A stretch of 28,404 nucleotides of DNA from a virus. The stretch lies in IMG/VR virus record IMGVR_UViG_3300033148_007780; one strand, 5' to 3'. The first letter of the stretch is position 1. Each line of letters begins with the position of its first letter. Shown in pieces: positions 5,853-24,443 of the stretch. A model generated the notes under the pieces. The model was not told the origin of the DNA. It was given only the letters and a program-made list of their open reading frames with translations, and did not search any database. Both the position numbers and the translations under genes were made by a program.

Positions 5853-5929
5853 ACTCTCATAACTCAGCTGGATAGAGTTTTGGTTTTCTAAACCAAGGGT
5901 CGAAGGTTCGAATCCTTCTGAGAGTGCCA
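5853..5929 (+). tRNA. tRNA-Arg (anticodon TCT)
   Basis: Manual cloverleaf. Acceptor actctca/tgagagt; D-arm actc-agctggata-gagt; anticodon stem ttggt/accaa with loop ttTCTaa; T-arm gaagg-ttcgaat-ccttc; discriminator g and encoded CCA. Confidence 0.9.
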
Positions 5930-8631: not shown

Positions 8632-8847
8632 ATGAAGTTTGCTGGTGCCGTCATTCTAATAGTTGGCCTGGTTTTTGGTGCAGCTACTTTGGGTGGTGTG
8701 TTTGAAAACAATACAAATGCACAAATAAACAAAAATGTTCAAAAAGATATTATCGAATTTGCTCCCGACGCAATTGAAAAAACAAAACAAATTACAAATG
8801 ATATATTTGATAAACTACAACAAAAATTAAATAAAGGACAAAAATAA
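8632..8847 (+). CDS. Small membrane-anchored protein
   Basis: ATG at 8632 preceded by AAGGA; N-terminal TM helix AGAVILIVGLVFGAATLGGV; stop overlaps the ATG of the next gene (TAATG). Confidence 0.5.
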   Translation: MKFAGAVILIVGLVFGAATLGGVFENNTNAQINKNVQKDIIEFAPDAIEKTKQITNDIFDKLQQKLNKGQK

Positions 8848-19250: not shown

Positions 19251-19630
19251 TGATAGATGATAATATTATGGATATCGAAGTCGAAAAATTTTATGTGTAT
19301 CGAAGCTTGCACCAAGATGAATCATGGGGCGCAATAATTATAGGTAATAATACTATTGCATATTTGCCAAATATAACTTTTGGTATGAAAATTTATGCTA
19401 AAAATGAAAAAGAAGCCATTGCGAAAGCTAAAGCAAATTATGATAAAATTCATGCCCATGATGGAGACAAAGATAATATTCGTGTATTTGCTGCTTCGGC
19501 CCTAAAAGCATTTCTTACTCGCGGGTGTGATATTGATATGGTAACATCGAGAGCACTTATGTGTGCGACAATGCTAAACAAAAAATTCAATAAATATTTT
19601 AAAGAGATAGAGGAAGAAAACAATGGATGA
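19250..19630 (+). CDS. Hypothetical protein
   Basis: ATG at 19250 overlaps the upstream stop (TAATG); GGAG SD. Confidence 0.5.
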   Translation: MIDDNIMDIEVEKFYVYRSLHQDESWGAIIIGNNTIAYLPNITFGMKIYAKNEKEAIAKAKANYDKIHAHDGDKDNIRVFAASALKAFLTRGCDIDMVTSRALMCATMLNKKFNKYFKEIEEENNG

Positions 19631-19940
19631 TAAGCATATGACTACTGATCGAATTGCACCCTTACTCGCTGAAGGTGATACGGTTGAGTACAAAGAGCTG
19701 ATCGAGAAATTAGAAGAATTGTTCGGACGAAATGCTCATAAAGTTTACGATACTTTTAACGTTACTATGATTAAAGATCAGAAGCTTGGTATTGCTCTTG
19801 TGTTTGAGGGCGAACGAGAAGAGTCTAAAGAAGAAACAGCATATCGTGAGGCAGAAGAAGGCGCTAAGAAAAAGCGCGTTGAAGATGCCGAGCTGAAGGA
19901 GTATTTGAGATTGCATAAAAAATATGGTAGAAAGAAGTAA
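19623..19940 (+). CDS. Highly charged hypothetical protein
   Basis: E/K-rich C-terminus; GAGGAAG SD. Confidence 0.45.
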   Translation: MDDKHMTTDRIAPLLAEGDTVEYKELIEKLEELFGRNAHKVYDTFNVTMIKDQKLGIALVFEGEREESKEETAYREAEEGAKKKRVEDAELKEYLRLHKKYGRKK

Positions 19941-19970
19941 GCGCCCCGGCAGAATATAAATAGAAACAAT

Positions 19971-20174
19971 ATGATAAAAATATTTTTAAGCATGTTTGTC
20001 GTCGCAGGTATAAGTTTTGCCGCTGGTTATAGTGTAACTTCTGCAACCTATATTGAGCGTCGTGAATTATTTGAACAAGCGCATGAAATATTTTGCAAAG
20101 ATTGTTGCTGGAAACATGAATATATTTATACCTGTACTAAGAAAAAAGAGCAATTATGGAAAAGGATTAATTAA
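19971..20174 (+). CDS. Small membrane protein
   Basis: N-terminal TM IKIFLSMFVVAGISFAAGY. Confidence 0.4.
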   Translation: MIKIFLSMFVVAGISFAAGYSVTSATYIERRELFEQAHEIFCKDCCWKHEYIYTCTKKKEQLWKRIN

Positions 20175-20186
20175 GTGATCCACAAA

Positions 20187-20549
20187 ATGAAATATTTTGC
20201 ATCTTTACCATCAAGAATTAAAAAGAAATTAAAAAGAAATTATACTTTATGTAATCACGAAACAAGTAGAATGCACTGTTTGTTAAAAAATATATTTACT
20301 TTAAGTGGTGCAGCGGTGGCTTTTACAAAATCAAATAGAATTATTGGCTGGTCGAGTGTCGAAAATAGCAAAATTAATGACGTTACGCTTGTGTGTACAT
20401 TTGTTTCCGAAAAGCATAGACATAAAGGATATGCCAAACAATTGGTACATCGTTGCATTGAAGAAAATGAACGAAGAAATTATTTAATTTATAGTCACAT
20501 ACAAAATAGATTTGTTCAGATTGGTGATATTTTGTATGAAAATAATTAA
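20187..20549 (+). CDS. GNAT-like acetyltransferase (tentative)
   Basis: VCTFVSEKHRHKGYAKQLVHRCIEE resembles the GNAT acetyl-CoA-binding motif. Confidence 0.45.
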   Translation: MKYFASLPSRIKKKLKRNYTLCNHETSRMHCLLKNIFTLSGAAVAFTKSNRIIGWSSVENSKINDVTLVCTFVSEKHRHKGYAKQLVHRCIEENERRNYLIYSHIQNRFVQIGDILYENN

Positions 20550-20570
20550 AGGTGATAGAAAGCGCGCGCA

Positions 20571-20936
20571 ATGAAGTATCACGATGCATCTATTTCAAAA
20601 AACGGAATTAAATTAGGCGACTTTGTATTGGTTAATAAAATTAATGGATATTATGGTCGTGTTATAAGAATAATGAAAAGAACGCATGAAAAACATGACT
20701 GGCAAGTTAATAATGGGAAGCATAAAGTTTGCGTTGGAGAAGAATTGGCGTCCTCTATTACTGTAACAAAAGTTATTAATCTTGATTTAACCACTACCAA
20801 AAGACAAGTTACATCTGTGGTGAGTGATGATAAAATAACTAATATTACTAAAGAATTTATTTCTAAAATGTTTAGAAAACTTAATGATACCGCGGCGTAT
20901 ATTAAAATGATTAACGAACAAAGCGAGACCATATAA
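20571..20936 (+). CDS. Hypothetical protein
   Basis: AAAGGTG SD. Confidence 0.45.
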   Translation: MKYHDASISKNGIKLGDFVLVNKINGYYGRVIRIMKRTHEKHDWQVNNGKHKVCVGEELASSITVTKVINLDLTTTKRQVTSVVSDDKITNITKEFISKMFRKLNDTAAYIKMINEQSETI

Positions 20937-20958
20937 TAGACCGAAGGGATTGGTAATT

Positions 20959-21369
20959 ATGAACAAAGAAAATACAAGAAAACTTTTTAAGCGGTTTGCT
21001 TTTTTAAAGAAAACCAATATGCCCAACGAGTTTAATTGTGGCGACGGCTGGTACTCATTGGTGTATAATATGTGTAAAGAAATAAAAGCATCTAATCCTC
21101 CAGCTACATTTTATATCACACACATTGGCGAGCGTAACGGTGGGCTTAATGTTTATACAAAAAATGGTGTAATGCGAACACGAGTTATTATAGATGAGTT
21201 TAATACGACATCAATTGAAATATGTGATGGTTGCGGAAATGATCGTGATTTAGAAATGTGTAATAAGTGTACGATTCCGGTCATTGAATGCCCAGATCCA
21301 GAAGAAAATGCTGATAAAACAGAAAACGAATGCAATACTTGTTCTGATAACAAATGTGGATGTGCGTAA
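20959..21369 (+). CDS. Cys-rich hypothetical protein
   Basis: CDGCGNDRDLEMCNKCTIPVIECPDP...CNTCSDNKCGCA. Confidence 0.5.
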   Translation: MNKENTRKLFKRFAFLKKTNMPNEFNCGDGWYSLVYNMCKEIKASNPPATFYITHIGERNGGLNVYTKNGVMRTRVIIDEFNTTSIEICDGCGNDRDLEMCNKCTIPVIECPDPEENADKTENECNTCSDNKCGCA

Positions 21370-21393
21370 TATTAAAGAATAAGTTATTTAACA

Positions 21394-22536
21394 ATGGTTC
21401 CTCTAATAATATTGATCACGTTGGTACAAGCTTCCACGACGCAAGAACAAAATATAACCCATACGGTCGCTGTCGGCAACCCACTGGCTGATGCGACGGT
21501 TCATGCCTCACACTACGCAGCCGTGCCTGCCGCCATGGGCTACGCCATGGAGGCCTTTGCCCAACGCTATCCAGATATCGACCGCAACCTGGCCTACCGC
21601 TTCCTGGAAATGGCGGTCATGGTGGGCGCCGAAGTGCCGTGGATGGTTCTTAGCCACGAGGGGGGCCACTACCGCGCCGCAACGCGGCATGGCTGGGATG
21701 CCGAGATCGAAATGACTGGTTGGGCCAGTGGGCTGACGCGCATTAGACTCTCTTCCGATATCCACACAATTAATCAACAACTCGTCGAAATTACTGCCGC
21801 AGGCATTAATCAAGAAACAATAAATTCATTACATATTTATCGCAACTGGGTAATTAATGGTAGTGTACGTTATCAAGAAGCGTTAAGTTTTTTATTGGCC
21901 GAAACAAATATGGCCTTGTACGCGATTAGTACATTTCAAAAAGGCAATAATATTTCTGAGCCAGACGATATTAATATTTATATTCAGCTTCTTAACGCAA
22001 AAAATCAAGATATTAAAATTTCTGATCTTATGGAAGCGGCACTGATTGCAAATTTATTTTCGGCATCTTTTTGGGCTGCGCTGATTGGAAATATTCAATT
22101 TGTTGTAACTGGTGACAGGCATATTAGTATTCCAAGTTTCAACATAGGTTTAGTTGAAATTATTCTTCCAAATTTTCATTTATTTCTTGATAGTAAAGGT
22201 CCGTTTTTTGGTGGAACGATTGTTATTAATCCGAAGAATTTCATACCAATAGAATTGCGTACTGATATTCGATTTAATGGCCAAACAGTAGCAACAAGTC
22301 TACGACTACACAAAATTATAATTCTCGATTGGTTGTGCGTTAGTCCTCATCTCGCTGGATCTTACGATATCAATCAAGGAATCGGTTATATTATTGGTGC
22401 TGACATTGGTATTAATTTTAATCGCGACCTTGGCGTTATTGTAGGTGCCACTTATATTCATGATTTTGCATTCAATGAGGTTCGAGGACGCAATAATGGA
22501 ATTACAATTAATGCAGGAATAGAATTGCCCTTCTAA
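21394..22536 (+). CDS. Secreted protein with a GC-rich mosaic N-terminal domain (HEGGH motif) and an outer-membrane beta-barrel-like C-terminus
   Basis: Signal-peptide-like N-terminus. Nucleotides 21463-21742 are about 65% GC inside a 28% GC gene. C-terminal ...NGITINAGIELPF has alternating hydrophobics and a terminal Phe. Confidence 0.6.
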   Translation: MVPLIILITLVQASTTQEQNITHTVAVGNPLADATVHASHYAAVPAAMGYAMEAFAQRYPDIDRNLAYRFLEMAVMVGAEVPWMVLSHEGGHYRAATRHGWDAEIEMTGWASGLTRIRLSSDIHTINQQLVEITAAGINQETINSLHIYRNWVINGSVRYQEALSFLLAETNMALYAISTFQKGNNISEPDDINIYIQLLNAKNQDIKISDLMEAALIANLFSASFWAALIGNIQFVVTGDRHISIPSFNIGLVEIILPNFHLFLDSKGPFFGGTIVINPKNFIPIELRTDIRFNGQTVATSLRLHKIIILDWLCVSPHLAGSYDINQGIGYIIGADIGINFNRDLGVIVGATYIHDFAFNEVRGRNNGITINAGIELPF

Positions 22537-22590
22537 TTATTAGTTCAATAGTATTTTAAAATATAAGAATCAGTTTAATATGGGGCAAAT

Positions 22591-22764
22591 ATGAATGCAC
22601 CAAATATAAGAGAACGTCCTTGGAAAAATATTGACTCAATGATCTTAGGATTATGTTATATTTTGACAGGAATTATAATGATGATCAGCTTTGGTTATTA
22701 CTATAGAGGATTCTGCGTTGATTATGCGCTTTGGAGAACGAAAAAAATAAATGGGATTAGATAA
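22591..22764 (+). CDS. Small membrane protein (57 aa)
   Basis: TM segment ILGLCYILTGIIMMISFGYYY; weak SD. Confidence 0.3.
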   Translation: MNAPNIRERPWKNIDSMILGLCYILTGIIMMISFGYYYRGFCVDYALWRTKKINGIR

Positions 22765-22767
22765 TAA

Positions 22768-22992
22768 ATGAGAATAAAAAAGAAACCTGATCATTGGCCA
22801 GCTACATCACCAAAACAACAAATCGAGGGGCTTAAATTTATTGTGAAGCAAATAAATATTACGGATTTCGAATGGTCCCTTAAGCTATTGACTTGGAACA
22901 AATATATGAGTAAATCTAAGATGGCATCACTGTTAAGACGTTATAGAAAAATAGCTAACATTTCGTATAATCAGTGGAGAAAAGACAAATGA
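22768..22992 (+). CDS. Hypothetical basic protein
   Basis: ATGA overlap with the downstream ligase gene. Confidence 0.4.
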   Translation: MRIKKKPDHWPATSPKQQIEGLKFIVKQINITDFEWSLKLLTWNKYMSKSKMASLLRRYRKIANISYNQWRKDK

Positions 22993-24161
22993 GTACCATA
23001 GAAACGAAAATAGTTAAAGCAAAAATATTTCCACATTCGAACGCCGATAGATTAGAAATGGCACAGTTATTCGGAGATGGTGGATTTGAGTGCGTTGTTG
23101 GTAAAGGGCAATTTTTAAATGGCGATCTTGTCATATATATAATGCCTGACTCCATACTTAATGAAGAAATGTGTACGATTTTGGCAGAACGTAGCAAAAT
23201 ACAAATTAAAGACGGCCGCATTAGAGCGATTAAGGTACGCGGTATACTTTCCGAAGGACTGTGTTTAGACCCAAAAGAGTGGTTGGATCATGAGGTTAAA
23301 GAAGGTGATGATGTAAGCGAAGAACTTCGGATTACAAAGTTTGAGCCCCCACCAAAGCGTATGCAGAGTGTTGCAAGAAGCGGTAAAGGAATCAACTTTA
23401 ATTATGAGAATGAAAATTTTAAAAAATATTATTGCGTAGAGAAATTTAAGAAATCCCCGAAAATTTTAGCCGAATTGAATCAGGATGTGGTCGCTACAAT
23501 AAAATATCACGGCATGAATTGGAGAGGTGGGTGGGTTACAAAGCCGGTCTATAAAAAGACATGGTGGAACAAACTTATTAATCTATTTATTAAGGAAGAG
23601 CCAAAAGAGTTTTTGATTGGGTCGCATAATAAAATTAAAATTCCAACAAAAAATTCTATTAAATATGGGGATTATTATAATACAGATGCTTGGTGGAGAA
23701 TTGCCAAAAAATATAATATAGAAACCATTGTTAAACAAATTTCAGAACAAGAATCATTAATTTCTTATGGACAAAAAGAGCCGCCAAATGTAATAATATA
23801 TGCAGAGGTAGTTGGCCCCGGATGTCAGAAAAATTATTGTTATGGAGTTGAACGGGGAGAGTTAGAAATTAGAGTATTCGACATTATGATTAACGGAAAA
23901 TATTCTGATTGGGATAAGGTAGTTCATTTGTGCAAATGCTTTGATTTACCCATTGCCGAAGAAGTATATTCGGGTCCTTGGAGCCTTGATGTGGTTAAAT
24001 ATGCGTCCGGAAAAGACGAATACAATGGTAAAAAGCATATTAGAGAGGGCATTGTAATTAGACCGCTTATTGAGTCATGGCACCCAAAATGTGGTAGAGT
24101 AATTTTCAAATATCTTAATGAGACTTATTTGCTTAATAAAAATAACACGGAACATCATTAA
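22989..24161 (+). CDS. RNA ligase (Rnl2/ATP-dependent nucleotidyltransferase family) with N-terminal tRNA-binding OB (Myf/EMAP-like) domain
   Basis: N-terminal VKAKIFPHSNADRLEMAQL...ECVVGKGQF..GDLVIYIMPDSIL fits the Myf/Trbp111 pattern; KYHGMNW (KxHGxN motif I); the track start at 22974 is a GTG. Confidence 0.7.
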   Translation: MSTIETKIVKAKIFPHSNADRLEMAQLFGDGGFECVVGKGQFLNGDLVIYIMPDSILNEEMCTILAERSKIQIKDGRIRAIKVRGILSEGLCLDPKEWLDHEVKEGDDVSEELRITKFEPPPKRMQSVARSGKGINFNYENENFKKYYCVEKFKKSPKILAELNQDVVATIKYHGMNWRGGWVTKPVYKKTWWNKLINLFIKEEPKEFLIGSHNKIKIPTKNSIKYGDYYNTDAWWRIAKKYNIETIVKQISEQESLISYGQKEPPNVIIYAEVVGPGCQKNYCYGVERGELEIRVFDIMINGKYSDWDKVVHLCKCFDLPIAEEVYSGPWSLDVVKYASGKDEYNGKKHIREGIVIRPLIESWHPKCGRVIFKYLNETYLLNKNNTEHH

Positions 24162-24176
24162 ATTAGGAATTCGATA

Positions 24177-24443
24177 ATGCCTATTTATGAATATGTATGC
24201 CCGATATGCAAAAAGGAAAAAGAAATTATACAACATTTCGATGATCCGCCGCCAGAATGCGAAAAATGTCATAAAAATATGGAAAAAATAATGAGTTTAT
24301 CTTCATTTGCTCTTAAAGGCACCGGATGGTACATAACTGATTACGGAAGAAAGAAGAAAGCCAGTGGAATTAATAAATTACCTAAAGACAAACGGACTAA
24401 AAAATCTGGTAGAACAGCACAAGATAAGTGCAAAAAGGCATAG
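24177..24443 (+). CDS. FmdB-family zinc-ribbon protein
   Basis: MPIYEYVCPICKK...PPECEKCH...FALKGTGWYITDY matches the FmdB signature. Confidence 0.65.
   Translation: MPIYEYVCPICKKEKEIIQHFDDPPPECEKCHKNMEKIMSLSSFALKGTGWYITDYGRKKKASGINKLPKDKRTKKSGRTAQDKCKKA

Follow-up and report, generated by a model that had tools for sequence, protein, structure and literature searches.

How does an intact gene of an AT-rich phage come to carry, shortly behind its start, 284 nucleotides of markedly higher GC content? The question is raised by IMG/VR virus record IMGVR_UViG_3300033148_007780, a stretch of 28,404 nt that is referred to in its entirety as the window and that is part of an uncultivated, distantly T4-like phage. 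An earlier note on this sequence had described the GC content as jumping from about 28% to about 65% and back inside the open reading frame (ORF) 21394..22536, while one reading frame was kept throughout. We found this ORF, which lies on the plus strand and encodes 380 residues, as described, and the high-GC tract inside it is confirmed as a real, in-frame mosaic within one gene. The features discussed are collected in Table 1; the phage protein is labelled P0001, its homologous proteins P0002-P0012, and contigs carry labels of the form L0xx.

A maximum-likelihood model with two breakpoints, applied to the region 20901-23000, placed the tract at 21458-21741, close to the 21463-21742 originally proposed, with 64.4% GC inside and 33.2% outside. 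The jump is thus borne out, while the flanks, at about 33%, are less AT-rich than the 28% first given for them. Over all 284-nt intervals of the 28.4-kb contig the mean GC content is 34.5% with a standard deviation (SD) of 4.7%, and the tract lies about 6.4 SD above this mean; the second-highest interval (52.5% GC, at 9057) falls within a gene for a major vault protein (MVP). The GC content at the first, second and third codon positions (GC1/GC2/GC3) is 0.70/0.50/0.72 in codons 23-116 and 0.46/0.34/0.23 in codons 117-380, the latter values being typical for the other genes of the window, whose whole-gene GC3 ranges from 0.17 to 0.39. Since GC is raised at every codon position, including the third, the shift is not an amino-acid effect alone. 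When synonymous choice only was considered, conditional on the amino acid, the tract scored +27 log-likelihood units towards the codon usage of high-GC homologs and the remainder of the gene -285; the best segment of high-GC type in any other gene of the window reached 10 at most. The GC3 of the tract is near that of P0002 in the same alignment columns (0.77), and the fractions of the amino acids F, Y, M, I, N, K (FYMINK) and G, A, R, P (GARP) are 0.18 and 0.38 in the tract and 0.37 and 0.22 in the remainder. In both codon and amino-acid usage the tract is atypical for the genome and typical of the high-GC homolog group, and its best DNA matches (67-71%) are to genes of bacteria with 63-72% GC. 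A high-GC ancestry of the tract is supported by these comparisons.

The break in composition is real, but the word "sharp", used of it earlier, holds only to a resolution of about 10-15 codons, because step and graded bell models of the GC island fit equally well (logL -213.9, -213.5 and -212.4). From synonymous positions only, the left edge falls within codons 5-27 and the right edge within codons 115-126. The GC3 per 20 codons follows a bell-like course across the tract (0.55, 0.70, 0.85, 0.80, 0.60, 0.35), and the mean synonymous log-likelihood ratio is about -0.2 for codons 101-130 compared with about -1.1 farther on, a difference that is statistically inseparable from a sharp edge. A single reading frame is continuous across both junctions and the HEGGH motif lies in the tract, both as had been noted.

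The tract was first taken for a domain acquired from a high-GC donor by in-frame recombination. The high-GC ancestry and the in-frame mosaic stand; the acquisition of a domain does not, as every homolog spans the whole protein and the tract is the core of the family itself, in its normal place. Eleven homologs were found in a large protein database, with 27-48% identity over 79-96% of the query (E values 1e-46 to 1e-104). Homology to the family starts at about residue 23, and the alignment is collinear over the whole mature protein, with no insertion or deletion across either junction. The 12 aligned sequences have 37 invariant columns, all of which the phage protein shares, those around the motif being V81, P82, M84, S87, H88, E89, G91, H92 and R94, and the most conserved block of the family (VPxM..SHExGH..R...GWxSGxT) falls in residues 23-116. 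An intein, an in-frame mobile insertion or an added domain is ruled out, the segment being a conserved core present in all full-length homologs.

The genes of the homologs are GC-rich along their full length (gene GC 54-72%, GC3 up to 0.95) and lie in ordinary bacterial neighbourhoods. Two AT-rich family members, one in a bacterial context (L012) and one on a 95.7-kb phage-like contig (L013), encode the same core at a GC3 of 0.30-0.36, and the protein sequence therefore imposes no GC richness. The family is rare. A profile search of 1.84 billion cluster representatives returned 307 members at E <= 1e-3, and three distant loci were found in 185,579 species genomes (Armatimonadota, a 'Geobacter' metagenome-assembled genome and Myxococcales), together with five in metagenome contigs. 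No homolog was found in 50,697 deposited phage genomes, and IMG/VR, searched by a peptide pattern and by the exact 30-mer of the right junction, yielded no further copy. Searches of Pfam, PHROGs, NCBIfam and PDB sequences with the phage protein gave nothing that reached the threshold of a family.

The AlphaFold model of the phage protein is confident (predicted local distance difference test, pLDDT, 89.5; predicted template modelling score, pTM, 0.88). It consists of a disordered hydrophobic segment (residues 1-18), a strand (22-26), two helices (34-58 and 61-98, the latter with HEGGH at 88-92), a hairpin (102-118), a helical region (127-239) and about ten strands (243-380). With the whole model, fold matches in the PDB were confined to outer-membrane barrels. 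The terminal aromatic residue of ...ELPF is typical for outer-membrane proteins, and nearly all homologs end in F. The phage protein is accordingly modelled as an exported outer-membrane barrel with a helical HExxH insert, its hydrophobic N-terminus is probably a signal peptide, and a metalloprotease function may reasonably be supposed from the invariant HExxH. The small 12-stranded barrels KdgM, NanC and FapF and the phage-encoded outer-membrane barrels differ from it in lacking a helical insert of about 200 residues with HExxH between their strands; their sequence identity to the phage protein is about 9%, with no match at the family level. With HExxH zinc metalloproteases, including the site-2 proteases of family M50, it shares an invariant HExxH in a hydrophobic helix. 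Hints of M50 stayed below threshold (Pfam E = 0.086 in one of the 12 family members; a BFVD match to 'Peptidase M50' at E = 0.038), and the phage protein itself did not match Pfam PF02163 (peptidase M50). In comparison with known zincins, the third metal ligand was not identified, and the whole-model PDB matches cover the barrel only.

The family member on the second phage-like contig (L013:9890-10693; 95.7 kb, 37% GC) is a uniformly AT-rich protein of 267 residues that is not close to the window copy. It aligns to query residues 71-303 only and seems to be without most of the C-terminal barrel. The same contig carries DprA-like, RtcB, HD-domain and PHA02142-type RNA ligase genes.

Do the two parts of the gene share one history? 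The identity of the phage protein to its homologs is 53-66% in the tract (35% for the outlier P0012) and 32-45% in the remainder (24% for P0012), whereas comparisons between the other homologs give similar values for both regions (49.5% vs 42.5%). In neighbour-joining trees, tract and remainder both fall within the clade of P0002, P0005, P0009 and P0011. In the tract, no member of the family is more central than P0001 (mean identity 0.49), and in the remainder its mean identity is 0.32, under all others (0.34-0.43) except the outliers P0012, L012 and L013. Relative-rate comparisons of the Tajima type gave ratios of phage-unique to P0002-unique changes of 7:16, 4:10 and 4:13 for the tract and of 53:28, 57:24 and 45:25 for the remainder, where the phage-unique changes are about twice as many. 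The heterogeneity between the two parts has p values of about 0.004-0.07 with P0002 as sister; with P0009 or P0011 in that role it is less pronounced (p up to 0.31). The phage protein differs from the family consensus at 16% of the columns in the tract vs 47% of the remaining columns, where the departures are skewed towards a gain of FYMINK and a loss of GARP residues. Judged by these comparisons, the tract appears to behave as ordinary high-GC bacterial sequence and the remainder as a long-term resident of an AT-rich phage; the whole gene derives from one bacterial family, the tract being at most a homologous replacement or a retention within it. In the amelioration concept of Lawrence and Ochman, foreign composition is said to mark recent arrival and assimilated composition long residence. 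Discussions of amelioration usually concern whole genes or islands; here, in contrast to the classical case, both states coexist in one reading frame, and the edges are resolved to about 10-15 codons.

The history that we favour, and to which we give about an even chance, is that the core of an already ameliorated phage copy was rewritten from a high-GC homolog of the same clade. The phage would have acquired, in a hypervariable slot, a complete bacterial gene for an exported outer-membrane barrel and putative HExxH metalloprotease. This old copy would then have ameliorated under AT-biased mutation pressure until the signal-peptide-like start and the last 264 codons were fully assimilated, and a conversion or patch-repair event would later have rewritten the core with a P0002-like high-GC homolog as template. 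The left end of the tract lies where family homology stops, and its right end at or just past the invariant GWASGLT motif, where the crossover could be owed to microhomology together with selection for an intact protein, or to a donor and a recipient more alike than any that were sampled. We infer the order of events, the high-GC template and the recombination mechanism; that recombination joined segments of different residence times is suggested because the neutral synonymous sites differ so strongly.

Several observations weigh against this history, some concerning the exchange itself and others the contig. In DNA, the AT-rich part of the gene shares only 40-48% identity with the high-GC homologs, a figure that concerns present-day sampled sequences, the true donor being unsampled, and the longest shared exact run is 20 nt. 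The flanks thus exceed what recombinases tolerate, and an in-frame homologous crossover between present-day sequences is hard to explain. No donor was identified: the closest sampled homolog has 64-66% amino-acid and 71% DNA identity to the tract, which by DNA had no match in phage or plasmid collections. For one clade of a rare family to supply the phage twice would be a coincidence, except in the case of regular encounters between the two, and a partner of at least 60% GC would be unusual for a phage of 35% GC. As to the contig, the mosaic protein stands alone (a singleton) in about 15 billion proteins, and positions 21513-21789, which include the right junction, are spanned by no independent sequence. 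Two short independent contigs, L021 (JGI 3300033143, 2,195 bp) and L018 (JGI 3300033141, 2,476 bp), both break off at the tract, an outcome to which random breaks would give a joint probability of about 0.014. These contig ends suggest either that coverage falls off within the high-GC tract or that the assembly graph branches at a polymorphic or shared tract, and the tract could be polymorphic, or common to another genome in the samples of L021 and L018.

The latter points are also those that would be expected if the assembler had threaded the tract of a high-GC bacterial homolog from the same sample into the phage contig: only a single contig has the mosaic protein, its right junction has no independent spanning sequence, and both short contigs stop as at a branch of the assembly graph. 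Such an artefact, the chimeric assembly that had been allowed for from the outset, is weakened by L021, and we regard it as very improbable. L021 comes from another sample and corresponds to window 19318-21512 with one single-nucleotide polymorphism (SNP), at 21201, elsewhere than the junction; it spans the same AT-to-GC junction on the left and is identical to the window for 55 nt inside the tract. L018 corresponds to window 21790-24265 at 99.92% (two SNPs), which bears out the AT-rich 3' part, and begins 49 nt to the right of the tract, leaving the right junction without independent cover. At the left junction the bacterial homologs share no sequence with the phage, and therefore no shared k-mer can have made it. 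We consider the left junction real and a one-off assembly chimera unlikely. Moreover, the longest exact run in common with any sampled homolog is 20 nt, as given above, the frame and the residue-for-residue collinearity are maintained over both junctions, and a near-identical bacterial copy of the tract was not found in protein or contig searches. If the tract were an artefact after all, the case would usefully caution those who screen metagenomic viral contigs by composition.

As for the mechanism of a rewriting, the relaxed recombinases of phages tolerate up to about 12-17% divergence, and exchanges of small sequences of about 100 bp within genes have been reported for phages (De Paepe et al. 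2014, PMC3945230). The mosaic resembles such relaxed homeologous recombination in that a short tract of different ancestry lies in collinear sequence; here the exchange is in frame and leaves the gene intact. It differs in two respects. The exchanges described join phage or prophage sequences of similar composition, whereas the tract is about 31 GC points away from its flanks, and relaxed recombination needs about 83% or more flank identity at the crossovers, compared with the 40-48% found here to the presumed donor type. No recombinase of the relaxed homeologous kind was identified here.

The order of events could also be the reverse of the favoured one, and this is the main rival reading. 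A high-GC gene, whole as regards its mature part, would have arrived recently and its 3' two-thirds would then have been replaced by an old AT-rich allele of the same gene from another phage or an AT-rich host, so that only the 5' core is left of it. This would yield an identical mosaic with both parts in the same clade; on its left side the tract begins where family homology begins, as an original acquisition junction would, and gene turnover is frequent in a hypervariable slot. We consider it improbable, given that no AT-rich close relative of the 3' part was found among 5.8 billion clusters (the best match, 47%, is to a high-GC gene) and that L012 and L013, the AT-rich members of the family, stand farthest from this part. 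For the reverse order, too, sequences of only about 45% identity would have had to recombine.

Had the gene been acquired only once and its core stayed GC-rich where it stands, the shared clade affinity of both parts would follow automatically. Selection on nucleotides could act on a block of host-rare codons that slows translation behind the signal peptide during export, or on an embedded DNA or RNA element; alternatively, repeated conversion, able to act only where similarity to a high-GC template persists, would leave a 'shrinking island'. The tract begins directly behind the signal-peptide-like segment, and its bell-shaped GC3 profile is fitted by a graded model as well as by a step. This retention nevertheless seems unlikely to us. 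Neutral sites could hardly hold a GC3 of 0.72-0.85 beside one of 0.23 without synonymous selection on about 90 codons, which appears implausible for an accessory phage gene, and the AT-rich homologs use AT-rich codons for the same core. RNA folding is not in excess (z = +0.46 and -0.61) and there is no Rfam match, which rules out an embedded structured RNA. An overlapping gene, in a different frame or on the opposite strand, is ruled out too: the alternative-frame ORFs, rightly called spurious products of GC richness in the earlier note, are of chance length (longest open frame 84 residues vs 85 +/- 6 in synonymous shuffles) and have no Pfam match at the curated cut-off. Among the high-GC homologs, codons 121-180 are at least as conserved in DNA as the tract, and the idea that the island is the family's region of highest DNA conservation was not borne out. 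A repeat, a duplicated template or a diversity-generating retroelement was also rejected, a second copy of the tract being absent from the window; no reverse transcriptase turned up among the 24 larger window ORFs that were scanned. That the core is kept or repeatedly refreshed, by recurrent copying of the catalytic core from a high-GC bacterial homolog encountered during infection or by selection for about 90 host-rare codons that pace outer-membrane export, we rate overall as quite improbable.

Table 1. Features in and around the mosaic gene (window coordinates).
Feature	Coordinates	Strand	Basis
Accessory gene, 380 residues; full-length member of a rare, uncharacterised bacterial family, predicted outer-membrane beta-barrel with helical HExxH insert	21394..22536	+	homology, AlphaFold model
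AT-rich hydrophobic N-terminus (MVPLIILITLVQAST...), signal-peptide-like, without homology to the family	21394..21457	+	GC1/2/3 0.41/0.32/0.41; pLDDT <50 for residues 1-18
High-GC tract, codons ~22-116 (strand beta1, helix alpha1, HExxH helix alpha2, beta2-beta3 hairpin)	21458..21741	+	breakpoint model, GC3, synonymous log-likelihood, AlphaFold secondary structure
HEGGH (HExxH), codons 88-92, in invariant block VPxM..SHExGH..R	21655..21669	+	alignment of 12 sequences
Possible transition zone, variable loop up to the AAGxNQE block, intermediate codon usage	21742..21806	+	GC3 9/21 (0.43), counted by hand
C-terminal beta-strand region, residues 243-380, most of the barrel, ends ...ELPF, fully AT-rich	22120..22533	+	AlphaFold strands, PDB matches
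Spurious alternative-frame ORFs	21491-21715 (+), 21508-21813 (-)	.	open-frame length at chance, no Pfam match above threshold
Cys-rich conserved gene, left border of slot	20959..21369	+	ortholog L020:5860-6291; exact protein also on L021
57-residue hydrophobic small ORF (membrane ORF), shares slot with target gene	22591..22764	+	on L018; no Pfam match
Conserved 74-residue ORF and PHA02142-type RNA ligase, right border of slot	22768..24161	+	orthologs L020:9774-11191; Pfam/PHROG matches for ligase

The window covers an AT-rich, one-strand stretch of accessory genes from a large phage, with annotated metallophosphoesterase, Nudix, DprA-like, HNH, ClpP-like protease and two RNA ligase genes; its radical-SAM protein is 37% identical to phage versions of the Tevenvirinae type. 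The gene under study appears, from comparison with related contigs, to sit in a hypervariable slot and to be specific to this lineage. The slot (21370-22767) corresponds to L020:6292-9773 in a related phage, where the same two conserved flanking genes enclose 3.4 kb of unrelated small genes, including one for a NADAR-domain protein, and the target homolog is absent. On L019, the 1.9 kb upstream of the ligase holds four other small genes, again including NADAR, and no called product like the target. The 57-residue ORF of the slot had no nucleotide match in L020 and was not seen among its ORFs by eye; a protein-level search was not made. The RNA ligase at the right border has 71 relatives; a search of IMG/VR with this ligase gave no close relative of the phage. 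The contigs related through the MVP gene (L014-L017) end short of the target position, and no relative carrying the target gene without the high-GC tract was found.

Other features of the region are recorded for completeness. Two tRNA genes, tRNA-Arg(TCT) at 5853-5929 and tRNA-Thr(TGT) at 14228-14302, both read A-ending codons, which fits the AT-rich codon usage. The DprA-like recombination mediator (12389-12928) and the HNH endonuclease (15134-15619) are of possible relevance to phage DNA exchange. L019 encodes a 692-residue product with full EF-G/EF-Tu-type domains (GTP_EFTU, EFG_III, EFG_IV, EFG_C; L019:12186-13113), as well as a Band_7 protein and a ClpP/NfeD pair.

Could the tract share its donor with the MVP gene, the other GC-elevated island of the window, as had been suggested? 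The MVP gene argues otherwise, as its GC3 is only 0.36 and both the gene and its GC pattern are common to related phages. It encodes an 847-residue homolog (8847-11390; Pfam MVP_shoulder 1.7e-24, Vault_3 4.4e-09) with 44% GC overall and a GC1/GC2/GC3 of 0.59/0.38/0.36, the elevation being in first codon positions. Related phages have the gene at 74-82% identity and with the same codon-position GC (0.60/0.39/0.37 and 0.57/0.37/0.33). The raised GC reflects the amino-acid content of a long-resident gene, and not a recent import. The relatives at 74-82% are on phage-like contigs of up to 53 kb and one at 66% is on a 114-kb contig; bacterial relatives at 47-50% identity number in the thousands. 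Phage MVPs were reported earlier, in gut phages (bioRxiv 10.1101/2023.11.10.566534). Directly downstream of the MVP gene, ORF 11801-12211 has the same pattern (GC 44%, GC1 0.59, GC3 0.36), and its region is conserved in L014 at about 75% DNA identity. On L017, two TnpB-like genes (Cas12f1-like_TNB; L017:14138-15355 and L017:18984-20138) lie downstream of MVP, with none at the corresponding place of the window.

Phage mosaicism and the capture of genes from hosts are well known, and the mosaic described here is an unusual instance of these phenomena in a previously uncharacterised protein family. Within one intact frame it combines two compositional 'ages' that differ by about 31 GC points, and one junction is reproduced in an independent sample. 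The gene is hence a natural test case for the exchange of tracts between sequences too divergent for ordinary homologous recombination, and for the pace of amelioration in phage genomes. If recurrent copying were to prove true, a T4-like phage of about 35% GC would exchange DNA with bacteria of at least 60% GC by a route that tolerates very divergent flanks. Neither Pfam nor PHROGs nor NCBIfam contains the architecture of the family, a barrel with a helical HExxH insert, which is found in at least two large phages, where the protein may act on the host envelope.

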